Source: an uncultured Candidatus Saccharibacteria bacterium (GTDB lineage Bacteria; Patescibacteriota; UBA1384; XYA2-FULL-43-10). From it: a stretch of 64,000 nucleotides of DNA. A program made the translations under genes and the position numbers. The stretch lies in assembly GCA_964426805.1 (NCBI GenBank), contig CAYRRY010000001.1, positions 2,504 to 66,503 of the forward strand, given 5' to 3'. The notes beneath the pieces were generated by a model. The model made no database searches. It was not told the origin of the DNA and worked only from the letters and a program-made list of their open reading frames with translations. This document shows, piece after piece, positions 4,090 through 63,040 of the stretch (the first letter of the stretch is position 1; each line of letters starts with the position of its first letter).

Positions 4090-4640
4090 TTAAGTTTGTA
4101 CGACGCGGGAAGTTGCCCTCCCGCGTCGCTTCGGATCCCGTGATTTGCTGAAAAGAATTGCTATCAGTAAATCACGGTCGTTGTCTGGCCGTCAGCTCAC
4201 CAGCGTAGAGGCCTGGCTCAGACAACTGTTTGCCCCGTGAGGAGTGGGGCACGACCGCGGTTGCCTCATGCGCTGGCTGTTGCCGCACGAATCAGCAACT
4301 TCTTCTGCGTCGCACCCATAGGGTGTCTCTCCCTTCTTGGGTATGTGAGGGGCGTTTGCCACTCACTATCACTGTGGAGATGTTCTCGACAAGTTAAAAC
4401 TATCATAAATCTGTCTCGACATCAACACACAACAAATAAAAAAAGACTCACCTAGAGTCTGAAAATAATAACAATTTAGAGGGGGGCGCGTCGGGTAACG
4501 CGCCCCCCTGCAGCTCAAGCAGATTGACAGCACCTAGATAGTGATTTATCCCTTGCGGGGCCACGCTATTCTAGCGCCATCATTGTGTCCGCCTATTCAC
4601 CACCTTTCGGTGGCGGACTATGTAAGAATATACCCTATTG
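4090..4640. ncRNA. GC-rich, highly structured non-coding island; candidate structured RNA(s) of unknown class
   Basis: No credible ORF. Perfect helices include CGACGCGGGA/TCCCGCGTCG (4101-4128), CCGTGATTT/AAATCACGG, GGGGGGCGCG/CGCGCCCCCC (4481-4508) and CCACC-GAAA-GGTGG, a GNRA-type tetraloop nested in GTCCGCC/GGCGGAC. A minus-strand intrinsic terminator follows at 4434-4460. Confidence 0.35.
4434..4460 (-). terminator. intrinsic terminator on minus strand (hairpin AGACTC-TAGGTG-AGTCT followed by TTTTTTTATTT)
   Basis: Read on the minus strand: agactctaggtgagtctttttttatttg. Confidence 0.6.
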
Positions 4641-13685: not shown

Positions 13686-13725
13686 GCGAAAAATACGAAC
13701 GGCTCACACTAAGTGTGAGCCGTTC
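13686..13725 (-). terminator. intrinsic terminator after the GH5-like gene (13-bp perfect stem GAACGGCTCACAC-taa-GTGTGAGCCGTTC followed by TATTTTTCG on minus strand)
   Basis: Read directly from sequence. Stem sequence is related to the dispersed palindromic repeat family. Confidence 0.6.
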
Positions 13726-13749
13726 GCCTATCTAGAGCGTATTAACTAT

Positions 13750-23419: not shown

Positions 23420-24154
23420 CTATCTCTTATAGAATTCTTCGGCTACTATTATCAATCTATTTAGTGCAGTGCCGACCGGTGTGCAAGTCATGAGGCTTAG
23501 AATCCTTTTATCTTCTTGATCGAGCACTGAAAGATCGTTTGGTTTTACGCTCTTTTTCTCAACTACGCTGTAACCGTAAATCACATTATTGAAATTTATA
23601 TATATTTTATCCCCCACTACCAATTTATCGAGTAGCACAAAAGCTTCTTTATATTTACCGTTTGACCAAAAATAGTCGGAAGAGTGACCGGTAATAAATA
23701 CATTGCCCCCTTCTCCCGGCTTTGCTGTGCCATGCAGGTGTATGACACCGTTTTTTAGGTTGCTCTCTGTTTCTGTTGGGGTGTTTGGGACATCCCACAC
23801 TATGGGGGCCTGAACATCTATCTTTTCGATCACGATTGCACCATTTGGAACGGCTGGCACATTTATAATATCATCTGTAGAGTTATGCGATTGGTTTGTT
23901 CCAGAGCCTATAAGTGGCGAATTATCGACTTCCTCTGTTGTTATATTTTCCTTATACCAAAAGTCAAACCTTTTTTTAAAGGTTCCGAAGTTTATGAGCG
24001 CAAATATTATTGAGAATCCAATCACTAAATACAAAACGTAGAGAAAATATCGAAGAACTTTGCGCCCCCCGGTTTCTGTATTAGTTCCATATAAATTTTG
24101 GAGATCTTTTTCTTTGAATTTCATAATTTGGTGCCAGAGGTGGGAGTCTGTCAC
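23420..24154 (-). CDS. sortase-family transpeptidase (likely true start at Met ~24124)
   Basis: TM anchor, ITGHS (His), LSLMTCTP (TLxTC Cys) and a downstream Arg. The extreme N-terminus of the track ORF runs into a tRNA-derived repeat. Confidence 0.75.
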   Translation of the reverse strand: MTDSHLWHQIMKFKEKDLQNLYGTNTETGGRKVLRYFLYVLYLVIGFSIIFALINFGTFKKRFDFWYKENITTEEVDNSPLIGSGTNQSHNSTDDIINVPAVPNGAIVIEKIDVQAPIVWDVPNTPTETESNLKNGVIHLHGTAKPGEGGNVFITGHSSDYFWSNGKYKEAFVLLDKLVVGDKIYINFNNVIYGYSVVEKKSVKPNDLSVLDQEDKRILSLMTCTPVGTALNRLIIVAEEFYKR

Positions 24155-24253
24155 TGGTCAAATTCTGTCGAATTTGCCATCGACCCCGTCTCCCCCGACA
24201 TTTCGGGGTCCGACATTCAACTCTTCTTTAATTTGGTGCCAGAGGTGGGAGTC
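24128..24253. repeat. two tandem 21-24-bp copies of the tRNA-Leu 3' end (TTGGTGCCAGAGGTGGGAGTC) at 24128-24148 and 24233-24253
   Basis: Exact 21-mer matches to tRNA-Leu positions 24336-24356. Copy spacing is 105 and 103 bp. Confidence 0.8.
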
Positions 24254-24336
24254 GTCTACAAATATTTTTCTGTTGAAAAATTTCGCAGACCCGCCTCGGC
24301 TCTCAGTCGAACCTGCGGCATTCTCCTCCATATTTT

Positions 24337-24423
24337 TTGGTGCCAGAGGTGGGAGTCGAACCCACATCACGCGAGCGTGATACGATTTTGAGTCGTACGC
24401 GTATACCAATTCCGCCACTCTGG
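24337..24423 (-). tRNA. tRNA-Leu (anticodon CAA), long variable arm, CCA encoded
   Basis: Hand-folded. Acceptor GCCAGAG/CTCTGGC. Anticodon stem TACGA/TCGTA with loop CTCAAAA. Variable arm CACGC..GCGTG. T-arm GTGGG-TTCGACT-CCCAC. Confidence 0.8.
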
Positions 24424-24534
24424 CTAAATATCAAATAATGTATGGTTAATAACTGATAATTAAGAAACGATGTATTATTGACAATTTCAGCTAAAATTAT
24501 AGCAAATTTTACGTTCTTTGGAAAGTGCTAATAT

Positions 24535-24571
24535 GCTAAAATTTTAAACGCCTCACTCGTGTGAGGCGTTT
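24535..24571. repeat. palindromic repeat copy A (AAACGCCTCAC-tcgt-GTGAGGCGTTT, extended to a 17-bp stem)
   Basis: Shares the core with copies at 56521, 60726 and 62396. Confidence 0.7.
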
Positions 24572-24652
24572 AAAATTCATGATGTTGTGCGAATAAACTA
24601 TTTTAAAATCCTGGAAATCGGTATATAATTGATATATAAAAGGAGGGCGTAA

Positions 24653-36740: not shown

Positions 36741-39641
36741 ATGAAATACGACTTCAAATCAATCGAGAAAAAATGGCAAGAACGTTGGGAGAAGTCGGAT
36801 GAGTTTATGGCTTCCGACGACTCAGACAAACCAAAACACTATAATTTGGTAGAATTTCCCTATCCATCTGGTGCTGGTCTCCATGTGGGGCACGTTATGG
36901 GTTATGGCGCCTCAGACGCTTACTGTCGCATGAAACGGATGCAGGGTTACAATGTGCTTTTCCCAATTGGTTGGGACTCTTTTGGTTTGCCCACCGAAAA
37001 CTACGCCATAAAGAACAAGATTCACCCACGAGTAGCTACCGACCAAAATATAAAAACATTTATTAAACAGTTTAAATCGCTAGGCATCTCTTTCGATTGG
37101 TCGAGAGAAATCGATACAACTGATCCAAATTATTATAAGTGGACTCAGTGGATATTTTTGAAGTTCTACAAACACGCAATAGTCGATGGAAAATTAGTTG
37201 AAGTAGCTGACGACGATACTATAACTCCCAGATTAGCTTATCAAGATGAGATAGCAATCAATTGGTGTCCGTCATGCAAAATAGGTTTAGCAAATGAAGA
37301 AGTAGTAAACGGCAAATGTGAACGATGCGGAGAAGAAACATCTAAAAAAATGCAGAAACAGTGGATGCTTCGCATAACCGACTATGCTGATAGGCTTATA
37401 GATGACCTTGATACCGTTGATTATCTAGAAAGGATAAGAACCCAACAAATAAATTGGATCGGGCGATCCGAAGGTACAGATGTGGACTTTAAGCTAAAAG
37501 GTTTAGATCAAATCATAAAGGTTTTTACTACGAGAGTAGATACCCTTTTCGGTTGTACATATATGGTACTTTCGCCAGAACATACACTTGTTAAAAAGCT
37601 GGACTCTTCAATAAAGAATGCTAATGAAGTTAACAAATATATCGAAAATGCTAAAAATAAATCTGATTTAGAACGAACAGAGCTTCAAAAAGAAAAAACT
37701 GGCGTACGGCTCGAGGGGATAACAGCCATCAACCCTATCAACAATGAAGAGGTTGAGGTTTGGATCGCAGACTACGTTCTAGCTAACTACGGTACAGGGG
37801 CTGTTATGGCTGTGCCGGCCCATGATGACCGTGATTATGAATTCGCCAAGAAATATGGGATTGAAATAAAAAACGTGATTATCCCAAAAGTAGTCGACAA
37901 ACACGATCCGCCAATGGAAGGTGTAGAAACAATTTATAGATTTTCGATACAAGCTATCATTATAAATCAGAAAGATGGGAAAGTCTTAACTCTCAAATGG
38001 AAAAAACTCCCGTGGAGAACATTTATCACTGGTGGTATAGACGAAGGCGAAGATGTTGTAGAGGGGGCTAAGCGAGAAATATTAGAAGAGACTGGGTACA
38101 AAAACATTAAATTCATTCGAAATCTTGGTGAAATCGTAGAGTCGCATTTTTATGCTAATCATAAAGAAGAAAACCGCAAGGCTCATTTTCAGGGTATACT
38201 TTTTGAACTAGAAAACGATGAACGAGATGAGGTGTCTAGCAAAGAAAAAGAAATCCATGAGGCCGAATGGATGACCTGGGAAGATTTGAACAATGACAAA
38301 CAGATTAAATGCGCTGAGTATGACATCTGGTTGGACAGAATTAATAATGACGAACACGCCTTTATTGAATACGGTGTTTTAATAAATAGCGGTAAGTTTG
38401 ATGGACTGGAGTCAAAAGAAGCAATTCAAAAAATCACACAAAAGATTAAAGACAATAATAGTGGAGATTTTGCAAAGAACTTCAAGCTTCGAGATTGGAT
38501 TTTTTCGCGACAGCACTACTGGGGTGAACCGATACCTATCATACATTGTAATACTTGTGGCACTTTACCTATGGACGAAAAGAACCTGCCTCTAGAATTG
38601 CCAGTAGTTGAGAACTATCAGCCCACAGACACTGGCGAGTCACCCTTGGCAAAAATCAAAGAATGGGTCAACGTTAAATGTCCTAAATGTGGAGCTGAAG
38701 CCAAAAGAGAAACCGACACAATGCCAAATTGGGCTGGCTCTTCTTGGTATTTCTTAAGATATTGCGACCCTAAGAATAATGATGAGTTTATATCTAAAAC
38801 AATGCTTGCTAGTTGGATGCCCGTAGATCTTTATAATGGTGGCATGGAACACACAACACTTCATCTTCTATATTCGAGGTTTTGGCACAAGTTTTTATAT
38901 GACTTAGGAGCCGTAAATACAGCTGAGCCTTACAAAAAGAGAATAGCTCATGGCATTATCCTTGGTACTGACAACCAGAAAATGAGCAAATCAAAGGGAA
39001 ACGTAATAAGCCCCGATGATATAGTTGAGCAATACGGAGCGGACACTCTTCGAGCCTATATTATGTTTATTGGACCATATGATCAAGAATCCGCTTGGAA
39101 TATGGACGGAGTTGCTGGTGTTAACAGGTTTTTGAATAAAGTAGTAAATAATTTTGAGAAAGTTGACGGTAATCACAAAGATGACGACAATACTATAAAG
39201 TTGATAAACAAGACAGTAAAAGGTGTCGGCGAGGACATTGAGAGGTATTATCTAAACACCTACATTGCCAAGTTAATGGAGTTCAACAACCATCTCTTCA
39301 CACTCGACAAAATATCTAGTCTAACATTAACTACATTTGCAAAGCTTCTCTCTCCTGCTTGCCCCCACCTAGCATCAGAAATGTTAGAGAGATTGAAGTC
39401 AGAGGACAATCTATGGCCAGAGTACGACAAATTAAAAATAATAGATAGCGAAATTACACTTGTTGTTCAGATAAATGGCAAAGTTCGTGACAAGATGACA
39501 GTACCCGCCAACATAAGCAAAGATGAGATGCTCAAAATTTCCAAAGAGAGCAAAATCGTTCAAAAATGGACAAAGAACAAGGAGATAATCAAAGAGATAG
39601 TCGTCCTAGGAAAGCTTGTTAACATTGTTATCAAGGGTTAG
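36741..39641 (+). CDS. leuS: leucyl-tRNA synthetase with an inserted NUDIX hydrolase domain (~37885-38367)
   Basis: HVGH, zinc knuckle WCPSCKIGLANEEVVNGKCERCG, CP1 editing domain (TTRVDTLFG...GTGAVMAVPAHDDRDYEFAKKYG), KMSKS. Between the editing domain and the EYGVLINSGKFDGL region lies GGIDEGEDVVEGAKREILEETGY, a perfect Nudix box. Confidence 0.9.
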   Translation: MKYDFKSIEKKWQERWEKSDEFMASDDSDKPKHYNLVEFPYPSGAGLHVGHVMGYGASDAYCRMKRMQGYNVLFPIGWDSFGLPTENYAIKNKIHPRVATDQNIKTFIKQFKSLGISFDWSREIDTTDPNYYKWTQWIFLKFYKHAIVDGKLVEVADDDTITPRLAYQDEIAINWCPSCKIGLANEEVVNGKCERCGEETSKKMQKQWMLRITDYADRLIDDLDTVDYLERIRTQQINWIGRSEGTDVDFKLKGLDQIIKVFTTRVDTLFGCTYMVLSPEHTLVKKLDSSIKNANEVNKYIENAKNKSDLERTELQKEKTGVRLEGITAINPINNEEVEVWIADYVLANYGTGAVMAVPAHDDRDYEFAKKYGIEIKNVIIPKVVDKHDPPMEGVETIYRFSIQAIIINQKDGKVLTLKWKKLPWRTFITGGIDEGEDVVEGAKREILEETGYKNIKFIRNLGEIVESHFYANHKEENRKAHFQGILFELENDERDEVSSKEKEIHEAEWMTWEDLNNDKQIKCAEYDIWLDRINNDEHAFIEYGVLINSGKFDGLESKEAIQKITQKIKDNNSGDFAKNFKLRDWIFSRQHYWGEPIPIIHCNTCGTLPMDEKNLPLELPVVENYQPTDTGESPLAKIKEWVNVKCPKCGAEAKRETDTMPNWAGSSWYFLRYCDPKNNDEFISKTMLASWMPVDLYNGGMEHTTLHLLYSRFWHKFLYDLGAVNTAEPYKKRIAHGIILGTDNQKMSKSKGNVISPDDIVEQYGADTLRAYIMFIGPYDQESAWNMDGVAGVNRFLNKVVNNFEKVDGNHKDDDNTIKLINKTVKGVGEDIERYYLNTYIAKLMEFNNHLFTLDKISSLTLTTFAKLLSPACPHLASEMLERLKSEDNLWPEYDKLKIIDSEITLVVQINGKVRDKMTVPANISKDEMLKISKESKIVQKWTKNKEIIKEIVVLGKLVNIVIKG

Positions 39642-55770: not shown

Positions 55771-56445
55771 ATGCCGGATACTGACGTTGCATACGGCCTC
55801 AACGAGGCCGCAGCTCGAGCAACACGAAAGGGAAAGATCCCGTGGTCAGCTGAGGAACTCACCTTCTTCGAATGCCTCGTCTACCTACTCGCTGACAATT
55901 TCCCCTCGTTTGCCAGCGTGTCGTTTGTGGAGAGCGTGGCAAAGCAAGCATTCGCACGGGCTAGCGGCGCCGAAGAGATTCACGCGCTGGCACTCCTCGA
56001 TCGCGAAGGAAGCGTCATCGACAAGTACGTCACTGGGAAGACCAGAACGGATGCCTATATCAGAATGAGGTCGATTCTCACCGATCCGTTCGAGACAATG
56101 AACACAGTGGAGGAGTGCCGCGCGCAACTTCACCTCTGCAAACGCCTGGTCGACCACCCCAGCCTGTACAACGAGCATTACGAACGGCGAGTAGCGGAAC
56201 TCGTGCGACCGCAGCTATCCTCATGCCTCGGCACTAGCTCATTCCTCGGTATCATCGAGCAACTGCCGCCGAACCCAGTCACTATTCTTCCGGAACTCCT
56301 CGAGATCGCCGGCAGACTTTTCGCAGATGCTACTCCCGCGGAGAAAGCCATGATAGCTTGCGCCCTGGGCTACATCGGACTCCCGCCGGAGGGCTGTCCT
56401 GAGTGGATCCGGGAGTACCTGGCGGAGCACCCGCCCGATGCGTAA
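55771..56445 (+). CDS. hypothetical protein encoded by a visibly GC-rich segment (probable foreign origin)
   Basis: 224-aa ORF with Ala/Arg/Pro-rich composition atypical for the window. Followed by a GC hairpin at 56471-56499. Confidence 0.5.
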   Translation: MPDTDVAYGLNEAAARATRKGKIPWSAEELTFFECLVYLLADNFPSFASVSFVESVAKQAFARASGAEEIHALALLDREGSVIDKYVTGKTRTDAYIRMRSILTDPFETMNTVEECRAQLHLCKRLVDHPSLYNEHYERRVAELVRPQLSSCLGTSSFLGIIEQLPPNPVTILPELLEIAGRLFADATPAEKAMIACALGYIGLPPEGCPEWIREYLAEHPPDA

Positions 56446-56470
56446 TCAGCGCATCAAAGCACGAACATAA

Positions 56471-56550
56471 AGACCACCTGGCATGCCAGGTGGTCTTTCT
56501 GCGTATAAATGGAGTATCTCTGCTAAACGCCTCACTCGTGTGAGCCGTAT
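56471..56550. repeat. 14-bp perfect palindrome AAGACCACCTGGCA/TGCCAGGTGGTCTT followed by palindromic repeat copy B (degenerate right arm)
   Basis: Read directly from sequence. Copy B is TGCTAAACGCCTCACTCGTGTGAGCCGTAT. Confidence 0.7.
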
Positions 56551-56576
56551 AATTAGCCTTATTTCAGCTATAGCCC

Positions 56577-59830: not shown

Positions 59831-59899
59831 TTTCCAACCATATAAATACTAAAAACACACCCATTTGGGTGTGTTTTTAGTTAAACAAATATCTATCGA

Positions 59900-60064
59900 T
59901 TAAGCTCGTTCGTGTTTTTCTACAAACCTCTTTATCGCATCGATGTTTTCTATCACCATCTTCGCTTTTTTAACACCAAACTGAAAAGGATATTTGTCTT
60001 CCTCATCATTTTTGATAACTATCATCGCGTTTCCCTTGAACTCTGATTCTTCTACAATCGCCAT
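59900..60064 (-). CDS. 54-aa hypothetical small protein
   Basis: Minus-strand ATG at 60064 with GGAGG 6 nt upstream. The leader shares a 19-bp stretch with the leader of ORF 60352..60669. Confidence 0.35.
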   Translation of the reverse strand: MAIVEESEFKGNAMIVIKNDEEDKYPFQFGVKKAKMVIENIDAIKRFVEKHERA

Positions 60065-60139
60065 TTTGCCTCCAAATTAAATATATAAAGATTATAACAA
60101 TTCTGCAGCTCCAGTGCCACTTTCTATTACTTCACGAGC

Positions 60140-60373
60140 CTACTGCATCGATATCCATTGGTTCATAGTGTCAACAGCATCTTGTTTCGCCACCATCAGC
60201 TCATTCCACTCTTGATCATCAAGCTCCCTGAGTCTCCGCTGCAATCTGTTTATCGTATCACTATCACGCGGGCTGATAATGTCACCCGTATGCCCACCCA
60301 ACTTATGCACCTTGTCTATTGTCGCTGTGGATTCTACATAAGGTTTTTTGTTCACGTCTTCTCGACCAGACAT
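60140..60373 (-). CDS. small hypothetical protein, paralog of 60352..60669
   Basis: Shared motifs VHKLGGHTGDIIS / VHQFGGRTRDIIS and EWNELMVAKQDA / EWDELMALKTDA. Confidence 0.45.
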   Translation of the reverse strand: MSGREDVNKKPYVESTATIDKVHKLGGHTGDIISPRDSDTINRLQRRLRELDDQEWNELMVAKQDAVDTMNQWISMQ

Positions 60374-60669
60374 TTTTTCTTGTAACCAAGCCCCCCCATT
60401 CTTTCATTAGCATCAGTTTTTAATGCCATGAGTTCATCCCACTCAGCGTTGTCCAGGTTGCTTCTAAATCTGCCTACGCTTTCTTGTAGCTTATTAATTC
60501 TAGCAAGACTTTCTTGGCTAATAATATCCCTAGTTCGTCCTCCAAATTGATGCACTCGTTTAGCCATTTCAGAGGAACTAACGTATTCCGCTATTTTATC
60601 AGTGTTTCCATCTACTTCTTCTCTTTCGTCTTCCGCTGGATTATGCGAAGTCGGTCTTGCTTCCACCAT
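60352..60669 (-). CDS. small hypothetical protein, paralog of 60140..60373
   Basis: As above. GGAGG RBS. Confidence 0.45.
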   Translation of the reverse strand: MVEARPTSHNPAEDEREEVDGNTDKIAEYVSSSEMAKRVHQFGGRTRDIISQESLARINKLQESVGRFRSNLDNAEWDELMALKTDANERMGGLGYKKKCLVEKT

Positions 60670-60725
60670 AGTTCCTCCAAATTAAATATATAGAAATTAT
60701 ATCATCTTTTGATTTATTTTCATAT

Positions 60726-60758
60726 TTGCTAAACGCCTCATACGAGTGAGGCGTTTAG
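60726..60758. repeat. palindromic repeat copy C (TTGCTAAACGCCTCA-tacgag-TGAGGCGTTTAG)
   Basis: Near-identical to copy D. A second GC hairpin CGGCCTCGC-atgag-GCGAGGCCG lies at 60808-60830. Confidence 0.75.
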
Positions 60759-60853
60759 ACTCAAACCACGCTCACATTTATTTGATTATAATATTTTTTA
60801 AACAGCTACGGCCTCGCATGAGGCGAGGCCGCTAGTAACGATACATCTTACTC

Positions 60854-62221
60854 TTAATGAGCGGGATAGTTCCCGTCAAAACATGCTTTACAGAAATCCT
60901 CAGGATCCCACCCAAAAGATCTTATGACTTCATCTAGGCCTTCGAGCGAGAGAAAGTGAAGCTTGTCTGCACCGATCTCTTTGCGAATAGCCTCAACATC
61001 TCCTTTCAGCCGGTGAGCAATCAGCTCCTCGTTGGTTGGGGTATCTATGCCAAGGTTACATCGACAGTAAAACATGGGACAGGGAATAAATACTTCAACC
61101 GAGCTTGGGTTGTTTCTTCGTAGAACCTCGACAACAGGGCCGATAGTTGTTCCACGAACAATTGAGTCGTCCACTACCAACAAGCGAAGACCAGGCTCTG
61201 TCCTGCAAGGAACGTGTTTGCTCCAAACACTAGCTACTCTCATCGACTGCAAAGGCTGAAGAAACGTACGCCTTTTGCCGACGTTAATCAAAAACGGATC
61301 ATATTCTATTCCGCTCTCCCGATACAGTCCAAGAGCTCCACCAAGACCGCTGTTGAGCACTGGCACCACGCGAGCGTCGGAGTCAGGCAAGAGGCCAACT
61401 TCCCTGGCAAGCTGTGCGCCCAAAGCTTTTCGGAAATCCAAGCAGGTAACGCCTCTGAACTTAGAAAACGCTCTTTGGAAATAGATGAACTCGAAGATGC
61501 AGTTGTCAGGATCTGCTGGCGCAAAACGTTCACGTTGCACGGTGCCGTCCGGGTGGACGTAGACCACCTCTCCCGGCTCAACCTCACCATCGACAGTCCC
61601 GCCGACACTCTCTATGGCACAAGTCTCGGAAGCGGCAAGAAAGGCAGTGCGACCATCTATCTCGATATGCCCGGTGTACAAAGGACGAATGCCGTGCGGG
61701 TCTCGCACATAGGCCACAACTCCTCCTGATTGAAGAATACAGAGGGAGTAAGAGCCTTCAAGTTTCGTACAAACCGAGGTAATCCGTTCATGCAATGTCC
61801 CTTTGGCCTGCGCCAGAAGTGCAGCCACGTACTCGGTATCGCTTCCGAACTCCATCTCCTTCTCTGTTCCTGGAACGAGCATGCCTTGAAGATCGTCAAC
61901 GTTGGTAATGTTGCCGTTGTGAGCAAGTGCAATATCACCAACGTGGAACGGGTGTGCACCCGCTTCGCCAGAGCCAGCGCTTGTTGGGTATCGGACATGG
62001 CCGATGCTTGCTCGACCAAGCAGAAGCGTTCGCATGCGCTCAGAAAAAACTTCTTCCGGACTGCCTTGGCCCTTGACTACTCTCAGCTCATTTGGCTCGC
62101 ACCCCCCGGATATCGCTATCCCAGCTGCATCATCGCCCCTGTTTGTCTGCATTTCAAGCATTCCCAATACGAGCGTTGCGGCCGAAAGATCTATGCAACT
62201 TGCACCGGCAATACCACACAT
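60854..62221 (-). CDS. purF: amidophosphoribosyltransferase (glutamine PRPP amidotransferase), GC-rich gene; start at Met 62221 so that Cys is the N-terminal nucleophile
   Basis: MCGIAG Ntn start, PRTase motif VVDDSIVRGTT, C-terminal Cys cluster. Codon usage is visibly GC-richer than neighbours. Confidence 0.85.
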   Translation of the reverse strand: MCGIAGASCIDLSAATLVLGMLEMQTNRGDDAAGIAISGGCEPNELRVVKGQGSPEEVFSERMRTLLLGRASIGHVRYPTSAGSGEAGAHPFHVGDIALAHNGNITNVDDLQGMLVPGTEKEMEFGSDTEYVAALLAQAKGTLHERITSVCTKLEGSYSLCILQSGGVVAYVRDPHGIRPLYTGHIEIDGRTAFLAASETCAIESVGGTVDGEVEPGEVVYVHPDGTVQRERFAPADPDNCIFEFIYFQRAFSKFRGVTCLDFRKALGAQLAREVGLLPDSDARVVPVLNSGLGGALGLYRESGIEYDPFLINVGKRRTFLQPLQSMRVASVWSKHVPCRTEPGLRLLVVDDSIVRGTTIGPVVEVLRRNNPSSVEVFIPCPMFYCRCNLGIDTPTNEELIAHRLKGDVEAIRKEIGADKLHFLSLEGLDEVIRSFGWDPEDFCKACFDGNYPAH

Positions 62222-62395
62222 GCAATTCGCTCTCCTTTTTGGATGTAAAAGTGCAAAGTTCACTTCTCACTGTTAATATAACAGCTATTCAGGTTAAAGT
62301 AATCTTTTTGTTCCAAATTAAACAATATAAAAAAATACCCGCGTAGACAGGCATGTAATAGCAAAACAATTTAGGCTAACCCAATAATTTCGAAC

Positions 62396-62428
62396 TTGCT
62401 AAACGCCTCATGCGAGTGAGGCGTTTGG
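62396..62428. repeat. palindromic repeat copy D (TTGCTAAACGCCTCA-tgcgag-TGAGGCGTTTGG), direct orientation relative to copy C
   Basis: Read directly from sequence. Confidence 0.75.
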
Positions 62429-62439
62429 CGACAAGACAA

Positions 62440-63040
62440 AAAAAACACCGAGCTATATGCAATGTGTATTTTTTTATACTATATAATCAATCCTCTTTTG
62501 CTCCATAAAAACAACACAGGCCCGACGACTGTCGAGACCTGCTAGTAGTGTGCATTCCCCAATTGAGGAGTGCTGTATTATTGCGAGGCGTAGTGAAACC
62601 GCCCAGTCCACCGTAGTGCAGTAGTACATACTGCTGCCGTAAGTGGCATGTCTTTGCGCGGGTTTTTCCTGAGGCGCCAGGGCGACTTACGGTGCCCTAG
62701 CCTGCGTCGATATGCGCGCGTGACTGAGTGCGCGAAGTGTCATGATACCACCTCCAGCAAACGAGATGTGCTCGCGCTAGGCCTTGATACAGTGGAGCGG
62801 AACTTCTGAGGGTTCGAACAACTGGGTTGGTTGACGTCACGAGTCCCGGAGTCCAGGAGGTGGATCGGACAGGGGCCAAAGATGGGTACATCTTGCGCGA
62901 TGGAGCGCGGTGTTTATGTATTGTCATGCTTTTACCGCTCAGCATGACTCGGAAAGCCTCGCCTCCTTAAATGCATCGCCAACAATTATGCTCATGTTCA
63001 ATATTTAGTATACTCTAAACATTTTCGATGTCAACAATAA
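62440..63040. ncRNA. GC-rich, non-coding, highly structured region; candidate large structured RNA of unknown class
   Basis: No credible ORF. Local hairpins GCAGTA-gtaca-TACTGC, CGCGC..GCGCG and CATGCT..AGCATG. Long-range complementarity CCGTAAGT/ACTTACGG and CCACCTCC (62748)/GGAGGTGG (62866). Ends at a terminator-like hairpin. Confidence 0.3.

Follow-up and report, generated by a model that had tools for sequence, protein, structure and literature searches.

A dispersed family of short intergenic hairpins and an atypical purF gene in a Saccharibacteria-type genome

The 64-kb stretch of Candidatus Saccharibacteria DNA analysed here (the window, to whose full length all positions refer) encodes a purF-like glutamine-phosphoribosyl pyrophosphate (PRPP) amidotransferase, and the gene, purF, is bracketed by two nearly identical hairpins in the same orientation. 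Our results favour, with a probability of about 0.6, the explanation that these hairpins belong to a dispersed family of short intergenic hairpins resembling repetitive extragenic palindromes (REPs), and that the bracket is a by-product of how this family is distributed among spacers, not the footprint of a cassette. The preliminary description of this DNA had taken the arrangement for a foreign cassette mobilised through its hairpins. The part of that proposal that concerns the gene holds up, in that purF is atypical and looks accessory; the part that makes the hairpins the boundaries of a mobilised cassette does not, and hairpin-mediated capture of purF is not supported.

Four copies of the hairpin, A to D, lie in the window (Table 1), and a bracket of the kind observed can arise when such copies are placed at random. 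Spacers of 40 nt or more number 25 in the window, and 10 single features are flanked by one on either side; four randomly placed copies bracket some single feature in 19–24% of trials (P ~0.2). The family is dispersed, conservation is confined to about 30 nt, copy C is nearer to copies in distant contigs than to copy D, no recombinase was found in the open reading frames (ORFs) scanned, and the three closest homologues of purF occur without the hairpin.

Sequence, structure and distribution of the hairpin family

Copies C and D, the two that flank purF, match TTGCTAAACGCCTCA-YRCGAG-TGAGGCGTTT, are 33 nt each and agree at 31 of 33 positions, one mismatch being a loop base and the other a 3' base. 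This bears out the earlier report of a repeat pair of about 33 bp, in the same orientation and with about two differences. The purF stop codon is 95 nt from the end of copy C and its ATG is 174 nt from the start of copy D, in keeping with the 100–170 bp given previously. Copy C forms a 12-bp stem, CTAAACGCCTCA/TGAGGCGTTTAG, with an RNA folding energy of -18.9 kcal/mol (z = -6.3); it separates the stop codon of purF from the promoter-like site that serves ORF 60352–60669. Copy D folds at -18.1 kcal/mol (z = -4.8) and sits between a GC-rich non-coding block and the purF upstream region.

It had been suggested that further copies be sought, and the search added two in the window and four, beside ordinary genes, in Ga0307992 contigs. 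Allowing up to three mismatches, AAACGCCTCA-N6-TGAGGCGTTT is found four times in the window, against 0.00 expected from 100 dinucleotide-preserving shuffles; all four copies are intergenic, two in each orientation, at a density of about one per 16 kb. Copy A occupies the divergent spacer between a tRNA-Leu gene (minus), whose 5' end is ~120 nt away, and the iPGM gene (plus). Its stem is lengthened to 17 bp through AATTTT/AAAATT and folds at -24.6 kcal/mol (z = -7.9). Copy B lies 80 nt past a GC-rich ORF without homologues (ORFan) and 175 nt ahead of the DEAD-box helicase gene, whose promoter comes after it, and folds at -13.3 kcal/mol. Family members have folding energies between -13 and -25 kcal/mol and z-scores between -4.3 and -7.9 relative to shuffles.

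Alignment of eight copies together with their 40-nt flanks defines a conserved unit of about 30 nt, CTAAACGCCTCA-YRCGAG-TGAGGCGTTTAG, and reveals no conservation beyond the hairpin, so that there is no larger element. Outside the core, stem extensions are specific to individual copies and complementary (CCC/GGG in comparison locus L017, ATGC/GCAT in L038 and AATTT/AAATT in copy A), with extended stems of 12–17 bp. Double-sided changes in the flanks amount to 10 cells versus 4.3 +/- 2.0 in column shuffles, only 3 of 500 shuffles being as high. These complementary extensions and the folding z-scores indicate that the structure of the hairpin, and not its sequence alone, is kept. The 8- to 10-nt arm has zero occurrences outside hairpins in the window and the Ga0307992 contigs, and a search of the hairpins against Rfam at gathering and permissive thresholds gave only a weak resemblance to Chlorobi-1 (22 bits, against a gathering score of 50).

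These features bear on the possibility, which we consider highly improbable, that the palindrome is a DNA operator, bound as TAAACGCCTCA-N6-TGAGGCGTTTA by a dimeric regulator whose regulon would include purF, iPGM and the DEAD-box helicase gene. The dyad is indeed perfect, each copy with a known downstream neighbour lies 27–180 nt upstream of a gene start, and two copies are in divergent promoter regions. However, the loop is conserved and asymmetric (YRCGAG), the pairing extensions in the flanks point to structure rather than to a fixed binding sequence, perfect arms of 10–17 bp are atypical, and the neighbouring genes have no common function; in a compact genome, moreover, almost any spacer is upstream of a gene.

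Beyond the window, the matches listed by an exact-pattern metagenome scan include four contigs of one metagenome, Ga0307992 (L017, L038, L046 and L089; GC 37–43%), in which the hairpin is the same down to its loop TACGAG and its TA/AG feet, and the hairpin is the only sequence that these contigs have in common with the window. Its neighbours there have native composition and include a gene for a DUF4012 protein, with the hairpin on the 3' side, and the MetRS gene, with the hairpin upstream; the remaining copies are in a spacer between NUDIX and PDZ-protease genes and in a divergent pair that includes the gene for an NHL-repeat protein, the L089 copy being the one in a divergent spacer. The family thus occurs in either orientation, and the spacers that it occupies are of the tandem, 3'-of-gene and divergent types. 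Over 29–31 nt, copy C has 100% identity to the copies of L017, L046 and L089, and over 35 nt it has 97% identity to that of L038; it is therefore nearer to all of these than to copy D.

The wider distribution was scanned with the exact stem as the search pattern, which entails a strong ascertainment bias, and the 26-nt stem pattern was present in more than 100 contigs in each of two large collections. In Flavobacteriia and many further groups among the matches listed, the pattern is single-copy and accompanied by long A and T tracts, in agreement with an ordinary convergent terminator. In several Patescibacteria among the matches listed, the stem AAACGCCTCA/TGAGGCGTTT is multi-copy and intergenic, lacks a T-tract and carries conserved loops that are specific to each lineage (Table 1). 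One contig of the SDBT01 set, L068, encodes MreB and MurA proteins that are 67% and 43% identical to those of the window, which makes the SDBT01 organism a distant relative. Two other stems are likewise common to distant lineages: AACGGCTCAC, with the central C:G pair flipped relative to the main family, at 13696–13726 in the window and at L014:55, L039:7171 and L094:5252, and ATGTACACCT, at L089:4154 and L094:9643, whose apical sequence also includes TACGAG. None of these stems was found in ~72 kb from the nearest sampled relatives of the window. Viral contigs gave 0 matches to the motif versus 7, 0 and 7 for three composition-matched control hairpins, so that the hairpin sequence is not generally favoured there.

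Vertical conservation accounts less well for this patchiness than would expansions, within single lineages, of a hairpin that is mobile or easily copied. A more far-reaching proposal, which we judge very unlikely, is that the AAACGCCTCA/TGAGGCGTTT stem is a sequence-specific element that several Patescibacteria lineages share or exchange, that a conserved factor recognises and that marks the places where foreign DNA is integrated. If this were true, episymbiotic bacteria would possess a gene-capture system poor in recombinases, for which the ORFan, the orphan purF and the GC-rich block would be candidate cargo.

Properties and origin of purF

The purF product scores 281.9 bits against TIGR01134, under the cut-off of 350, and Pfam gives amidotransferase domains only, with no match reported to Pribosyltran PF00156. 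PurF structures in the PDB nevertheless match it over its full length, with E values of 1e-70 to 1e-45. Alignment with canonical PurFs (PDB 6LBP) indicates that it retains the Cys1 nucleophile and the RG, GHxRYxT, HNG and SDTE motifs, the RTF and DDSIVRGTT motifs of the PRPP site together with GIDT, and the cysteines that bind the Fe-S cluster in the B. subtilis-type enzyme, while PVPDSG is replaced by PVLNSGLGG. As judged from these residues, it appears to be a divergent member of the PurF family with an intact set of catalytic residues.

Its relatives are few. Among 5.8 billion proteins only three close homologues were found, at the L003, L007 and L010 loci (Table 1); their identities are, in descending order, 61, 55 and 54%, and the next matches, at ~41%, are to PurFs of Nitrospirota and others. 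The four clade members share 52–61% identity with one another and ~40% with canonical PurFs, which are ~50% identical across phyla. A homology search had been proposed as a way to the donor lineage; it yielded these three relatives at 54–61% but no clear donor, phage PurFs being 34–37% identical and a scan of GTDB genomes with purF peptides giving no relative. In L003 a distance of ~1 kb separates the gene from SecY-Adk-Map, and a DEAD-box helicase gene is also close by; the neighbours in L007 and L010 are unrelated. A gene for a Ham1-like ITPase adjoins purF in L010 and is 6 kb away in L007. The statement that the window holds no other purine-biosynthesis gene agrees with the Pfam scans of its ORFs outside 46.4–50.4 kb, and no other pur gene is present within +/-10 kb of the three homologues. 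The repeat hairpin family was not found at the L003, L007 and L010 loci; the purF of L007 is also bounded by hairpins, but by unique ones.

As had been noted, purF is richer in GC than its surroundings. Its GC content of 0.520 compares with a mean of 0.399 over 59 window ORFs (z = 3.2), and GC1/GC2/GC3, the values at the first, second and third codon positions, are 0.62/0.45/0.50 (z = 3.0/2.3/2.1), the exact GC3 of 0.496 comparing with a mean of 0.373. In GC3 the gene ranks third of the 59 ORFs, alongside LexA (0.51) and ORF 55771–56445 (0.67), and it thus belongs to the upper tail of composition and is not a lone outlier. In the window, L007 and L010 the gene exceeds its flanks by 11–15 GC points. 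The L003 purF, whose product is 55–56% identical to that of the window, has a GC content of 0.438 (flanks 0.407) and a GC3 of 0.333 in a genome of ~41% GC, and this orthologue at host-like GC implies that protein composition does not force a high GC content. By the same comparison, the window purF would not have been ameliorated.

The genomic setting was compared through BipA, whose best named relatives are from Candidatus Saccharibacteria and Patescibacteria, the closest sequence being 77% identical. Two relatives with BipA 75–76% identical keep the DEAD-BipA gene pair, but the DNA past BipA is different and without purF; their loci are otherwise rearranged. The contig of a third relative (BipA 77% identical) stops just after BipA. 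Exact look-ups of purF and of the 105-residue ORF beside it gave only assemblies of the same sequence and no strain variants with an empty site. The comparison with related genomes that had been called for therefore shows that purF is absent downstream of BipA at this level of identity, but offers no close relative for an empty-site test.

It is conceivable, if doubtful, that this Saccharibacteria lineage inherited purF vertically as a native gene, whose GC content would be due to protein composition and selection with no transfer. Consistent with this, the 55% identity between the purF products of the window and L003 is no more extreme than the values for housekeeping proteins from these two genomes (SecY 67, DEAD 63, Map 50 and Adk 30%), both genomes have purF within a few kb of SecY-Adk-Map and a DEAD-box helicase gene, GC1 and GC2 are raised besides GC3, so that part of the excess comes from amino-acid composition, and the GC3 of 0.50 is matched by LexA. 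However, the L003 orthologue shows that high GC is not required, three of four lineages have a gene that is 11–15 GC points above its flanks, no more than four clade members exist among 5.8 billion proteins versus thousands of relatives for BipA, and the relatives with 75–76% identical BipA have no purF downstream of it. The composition and the patchy distribution suggest instead an accessory gene, belonging to a small and divergent clade of PurFs, that was most likely acquired horizontally from an unsampled, GC-richer source. We attach moderate strength to this foreign or accessory nature.

Origin of the bracket around purF

In the explanation that we favour, the dispersed hairpins are built like the presumed bidirectional terminators of this genome, with an A-run and a GC-rich core before the loop and the complementary core and a T-run after it, and they occupy the few spacers that lie between transcription units. 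As stem-loops in the transcript or in single-stranded DNA, they may end, insulate or stabilise neighbouring transcripts. purF would then form a unit by itself, provided with an AT-rich region upstream and, on the 3' side, a GC-rich hairpin of its own, and the spacer on each side of it would happen to hold a copy. The positions of B, C, D and the L017 and L046 copies fit the 3' end of a transcription unit, and a role at transcript ends is the most likely one, as far as position and predicted structure can indicate. The window contains 13 perfect hairpins with a stem of at least 9 bp, three of which are family copies; most of the others are unique, have the order A-run, GC core, loop, GC core, T-run, are located after genes and are presumably the ordinary bidirectional terminators of the genome. 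A 13-mer, CTCGCATGAGGCG, is common to the 3' hairpin of purF and the reverse complement of copy D (loop plus arm), in a different folding register; the two, both GC-rich palindromes, may be related or may resemble one another by chance.

Several observations weigh against this explanation. The three GC-rich islands of the window (ORFan, purF and GC block) are adjoined by three of the four copies (P ~0.016 by spacer count and 0.03 by length, both post hoc), and on the 3' side of every island there is a copy whose orientation relative to the island is the same. Copies A and L089 are in divergent spacers, where there is no obvious job for a terminator; the stems of C and D are followed by only three T (TTT, then A or G), and a simple terminator scan does not call the hairpins. 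The Ga0307992 copies may derive from an organism other than this one or its close relatives. With regard to purF itself, an identity to the L003 protein that is within the housekeeping spread may reflect old vertical descent with losses and would speak against a recent transfer.

The association with GC-rich islands could also be explained if the hairpins were recombination sites at which foreign GC-rich segments were inserted or exchanged, purF and its flanks forming one 1.67-kb unit, either through short-homology recombination between copies after DNA uptake or through a trans-acting, hairpin-specific enzyme encoded elsewhere. The 3'-side copies of the ORFan, purF and the GC block support such capture in that the loop reads CTCGYR in each unit's own direction, as does the variability among relatives of the region downstream of BipA; in addition, the ORFan and the purF clade have no or almost no homologues, as expected of imported DNA. 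We nevertheless regard capture as unlikely. No integrase, transposase or HUH enzyme was found among the scanned window ORFs or in the annotation of the overlapping contig L001, which extends the sequence by 5.8 kb, in agreement with the earlier statement that no integrase or transposase is present. Copies are also found beside ordinary genes of native GC, C is closer to distant copies than to its supposed partner D, the DNA from each hairpin to purF is AT-rich, host-like and provided with a promoter, and homologues of purF exist in three other lineages without the hairpin. The orientation rule is broken in L017 and L046, and the statistics are weak and post hoc.

The dispersed-family explanation does not overturn current views, both components, REP-like repeats and an imported metabolic gene, being of known kinds, and its main value is that a tempting but unsupported cassette reading is removed. 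Reduced episymbiotic bacteria are generally regarded as lacking de novo purine synthesis and as poor in repeats. A dispersed hairpin family in a reduced genome would be a useful marker of transcription-unit boundaries and may be a substrate for recombination. The orphan purF may mean that some Saccharibacteria keep or regain part of purine metabolism or, alternatively, that phosphoribosylamine or glutamine hydrolysis is used for something else. Searches of the literature on Saccharibacteria purF, on palindromic repeats in the candidate phyla radiation and on uptake sequences found nothing relevant.

Neighbouring features and comparison with known systems

Table 1. Location and properties of the hairpins, purF and other features (positions in the window; L numbers denote comparison contigs)
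Feature	Position or contig	Strand	Properties
Hairpin copy A	24540-24577 (core 24546-24571)		loop CTCGTG, orientation opposite to C/D
Hairpin copy B	56522-56552 (core 56525-56550)		degenerate, two right-arm mismatches; loop CTCGTG, opposite orientation
Hairpin copy C	60726-60758 (core 60731-60756)		TTGCTAAACGCCTCATACGAGTGAGGCGTTTAG; loop TACGAG
Hairpin copy D	62396-62428 (core 62401-62426)		TTGCTAAACGCCTCATGCGAGTGAGGCGTTTGG; loop TGCGAG, 10-bp stem
purF-like glutamine-PRPP amidotransferase	60854-62221	minus	455 aa, starts MCGIAG
purF homologue	L003 10001-11371		
purF homologue	L007 10001-11374		
purF homologue	L010 313-1674		
purF own GC-rich 3' hairpin	60809-60831	minus	CGGCCTCGC/GCGAGGCCG; begins 23 nt past stop; fold -20.8 kcal/mol
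T-tract terminator-like hairpin, canonical	62335-62354	minus	between copy D and purF 5' region
Promoter-like site of ORF 60352-60669	60696-60723	minus	extended -10, TATAAT; immediately downstream of copy C
GC-rich ORFan	55771-56445	plus	224 aa, GC 0.58, GC3 0.67, clear codon periodicity
ORFan terminator-type hairpin	56469-56498	plus	unique, 13 bp, AAAGACCACCTGG/CCAGGTGGTCTTT; copy B comes next
GC-rich non-coding block	62501-62975		475 nt, 55% GC; longest ORF <=82 aa, stops in all frames
Promoter-like site at GC block	63007-63034	minus	TTGACA-16-TATACT, 11/12 matches; points into GC block
Unique A-run/T-run terminators	59848-59881, 46852-80, 56469-98		
tRNA-Leu 3'-end repeats	24124-24148, 24229-24253, 24333-24357		
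Stem in Berkelbacteria ELA735	L133, L179, L182		loop ATGGAC
Stem in Peregrinibacteria	L026, L157, L177		loop AGTATA
Stem in SDBT01/SDBV01 contigs	L014, L039, L054, L094		loops ACCAGT, TCGCGG; up to five or six copies in 10.7 kb

The Pfam scans cover the window ORFs outside 46.4–50.4 kb, where SecY, Adk and Map are taken from the annotation of L001. Among the housekeeping genes found by these scans are those for aminoacyl-tRNA synthetases, NusA, NusB, RNase III, MreB and ClpB. purF had been described as the only full-length biosynthetic enzyme of the window, which is at odds with the presence of an EPSP_synthase-family enzyme, iPGM, subunits of PFOR, phosphotransacetylase and acetate kinase. 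In the 5.8 kb past the window end, L001 encodes a DUF2779 protein, a PIF1 helicase and an acetyltransferase. Defence-system and phage-family scans, applied to purF, to the small ORFs and to the ORFan, gave nothing relevant.

Of the other two GC-rich islands, the ORFan has no homologues in a search of 5.8 billion proteins or in a HMMER search of 1.8 billion representatives, and no match in Pfam, NCBIfam, PADLOC or PHROG. The GC-rich non-coding block that had been reported immediately beyond copy D is real. On the minus strand copy D lies 3' of it, just before the T-tract terminator at 62354–62335. Viewed as a possible protein remnant, the block has stops in every frame and no codon periodicity; it also has no Rfam match, no similar DNA in related loci or plasmids, and no tmRNA or tRNA detectable by ARAGORN. 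A strongly structured RNA is not supported, the folding z-scores being -0.65 (plus) and -1.6 (minus) with local averages of -0.1 and -1.0, compared with -3.8 to -6.7 for the non-coding blocks at 4.1–4.6 kb. The block may be a minus-strand non-coding transcript or decayed foreign DNA.

On the other side of purF, ORF 60352–60669 (105 aa) and ORF 60140–60373 (77 aa) are paralogues, and the former shares with ORF 59900–60064 (54 aa) an 85% identical 39-nt segment containing the promoter and ribosome-binding site (60666–60704 and 60061–60099). None of the three belongs to a known family.

Elsewhere in the window, the 3'-terminal 20–25 nt of the tRNA-Leu(caa) gene next to copy A (24338–24424, minus) recur twice downstream at a spacing of ~105 nt, and these repeats resemble the leftover att sites of elements integrated at the 3' end of a tRNA gene. 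Two GC-rich non-coding stretches on the minus strand, 4095–4400 and 4465–4640, lie between genes for TrmA-like and SpoU-like methyltransferases and fold with z = -6.7 and -3.8 versus shuffles, with no match to an Rfam family; the GC plot marks 4101–4625 as GC-rich. The second is accompanied by a promoter-like site (4655–4627) and a T-tract terminator (4460–4444). Both are candidate structured RNAs of a new type, as suggested by these folding predictions. The leucyl-tRNA synthetase (36741–39641, plus, 966 aa) has a NUDIX domain at residues 405–518 (Pfam E 2e-17), right after the editing domain.

Some established systems were considered for the hairpins and set aside. An integron cassette array does not fit copies that are separated by native genes, such as those for BipA and the DEAD-box helicase, and the hairpins do not have the attC architecture. 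A miniature or other transposon, with a body, terminal inverted repeats and target-site duplications, is not seen, there being no conservation outside the hairpin in the eight-copy alignment. A DNA uptake sequence was rejected, since half-sites never occur alone in the window or the Ga0307992 contigs.

Like integron cassettes, which are compositionally foreign and often ORFans, purF and the ORFan are single genes with a palindrome 3'; however, attC sites are imperfect palindromes of 57–141 nt with R''/L''/L'/R' boxes and extrahelical bases, whereas the hairpins of the window are perfect, 26–34 nt long and closed by a 6-nt loop. Integron cassettes are usually promoterless and arrayed beside intI/attI; here the genes have their own promoters and no IntI was found in the scanned window ORFs or L001. 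The host group has been described as naturally competent. The DNA uptake sequences of Neisseria and the uptake signal sequences of Pasteurellaceae resemble the family in forming inverted pairs of a fixed 10-mer at intergenic, terminator-like positions, and in that the same arm sequence is used across several related lineages with differing loops. Those sequences, however, are mostly single copies that are also present inside genes, while the arm is never found outside a hairpin here.

With respect to the enzyme, the product matches PurF (TIGR01134; the B. subtilis-type Fe-S enzyme, PDB 1AO0/1GPH) over its full length and in its catalytic and Fe-S residues, and differs in its score (282 bits versus the cut-off of 350), the missing PF00156 match, the changed PVPDSG motif and the lack of nearby pathway genes at all four loci. 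The conservation of residues suggests that it works like PurF. The deviating composition by which horizontal islands are recognised is evident for purF (GC z = 3.2, GC3 z = 2.1), and L007 and L010, though not L003, show the same excess.

The closest parallels to the hairpins are intrinsic terminators and REPs. Family hairpins share the A-run, GC-rich stem, loop, stem and T-run of bidirectional intrinsic terminators, but their sequence is repeated, including the loop, whereas that of ordinary terminators is not. Copies C and D have fewer than the five U residues expected in the eight positions directly after the stem; copy A has TTTAAAATT. The REPs of Proteobacteria and the mosaic elements built from them (BIMEs) are, similarly, imperfectly conserved intergenic palindromes of ~30 nt that are present in both orientations, form stable hairpins and have a lineage-specific, patchy distribution. 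They differ in that the window family has no identified GTAG-type foot, its copies are single and not paired or clustered as in BIMEs, and no RAYT or IS200-IS605-type Y1 transposase gene is present among the scanned window ORFs or in the L001 annotation; the host, moreover, has a reduced genome of the Saccharibacteria type. REPs at transcript ends act as terminators or stabilisers of mRNA, and most of the hairpins described here would lie at similar places.

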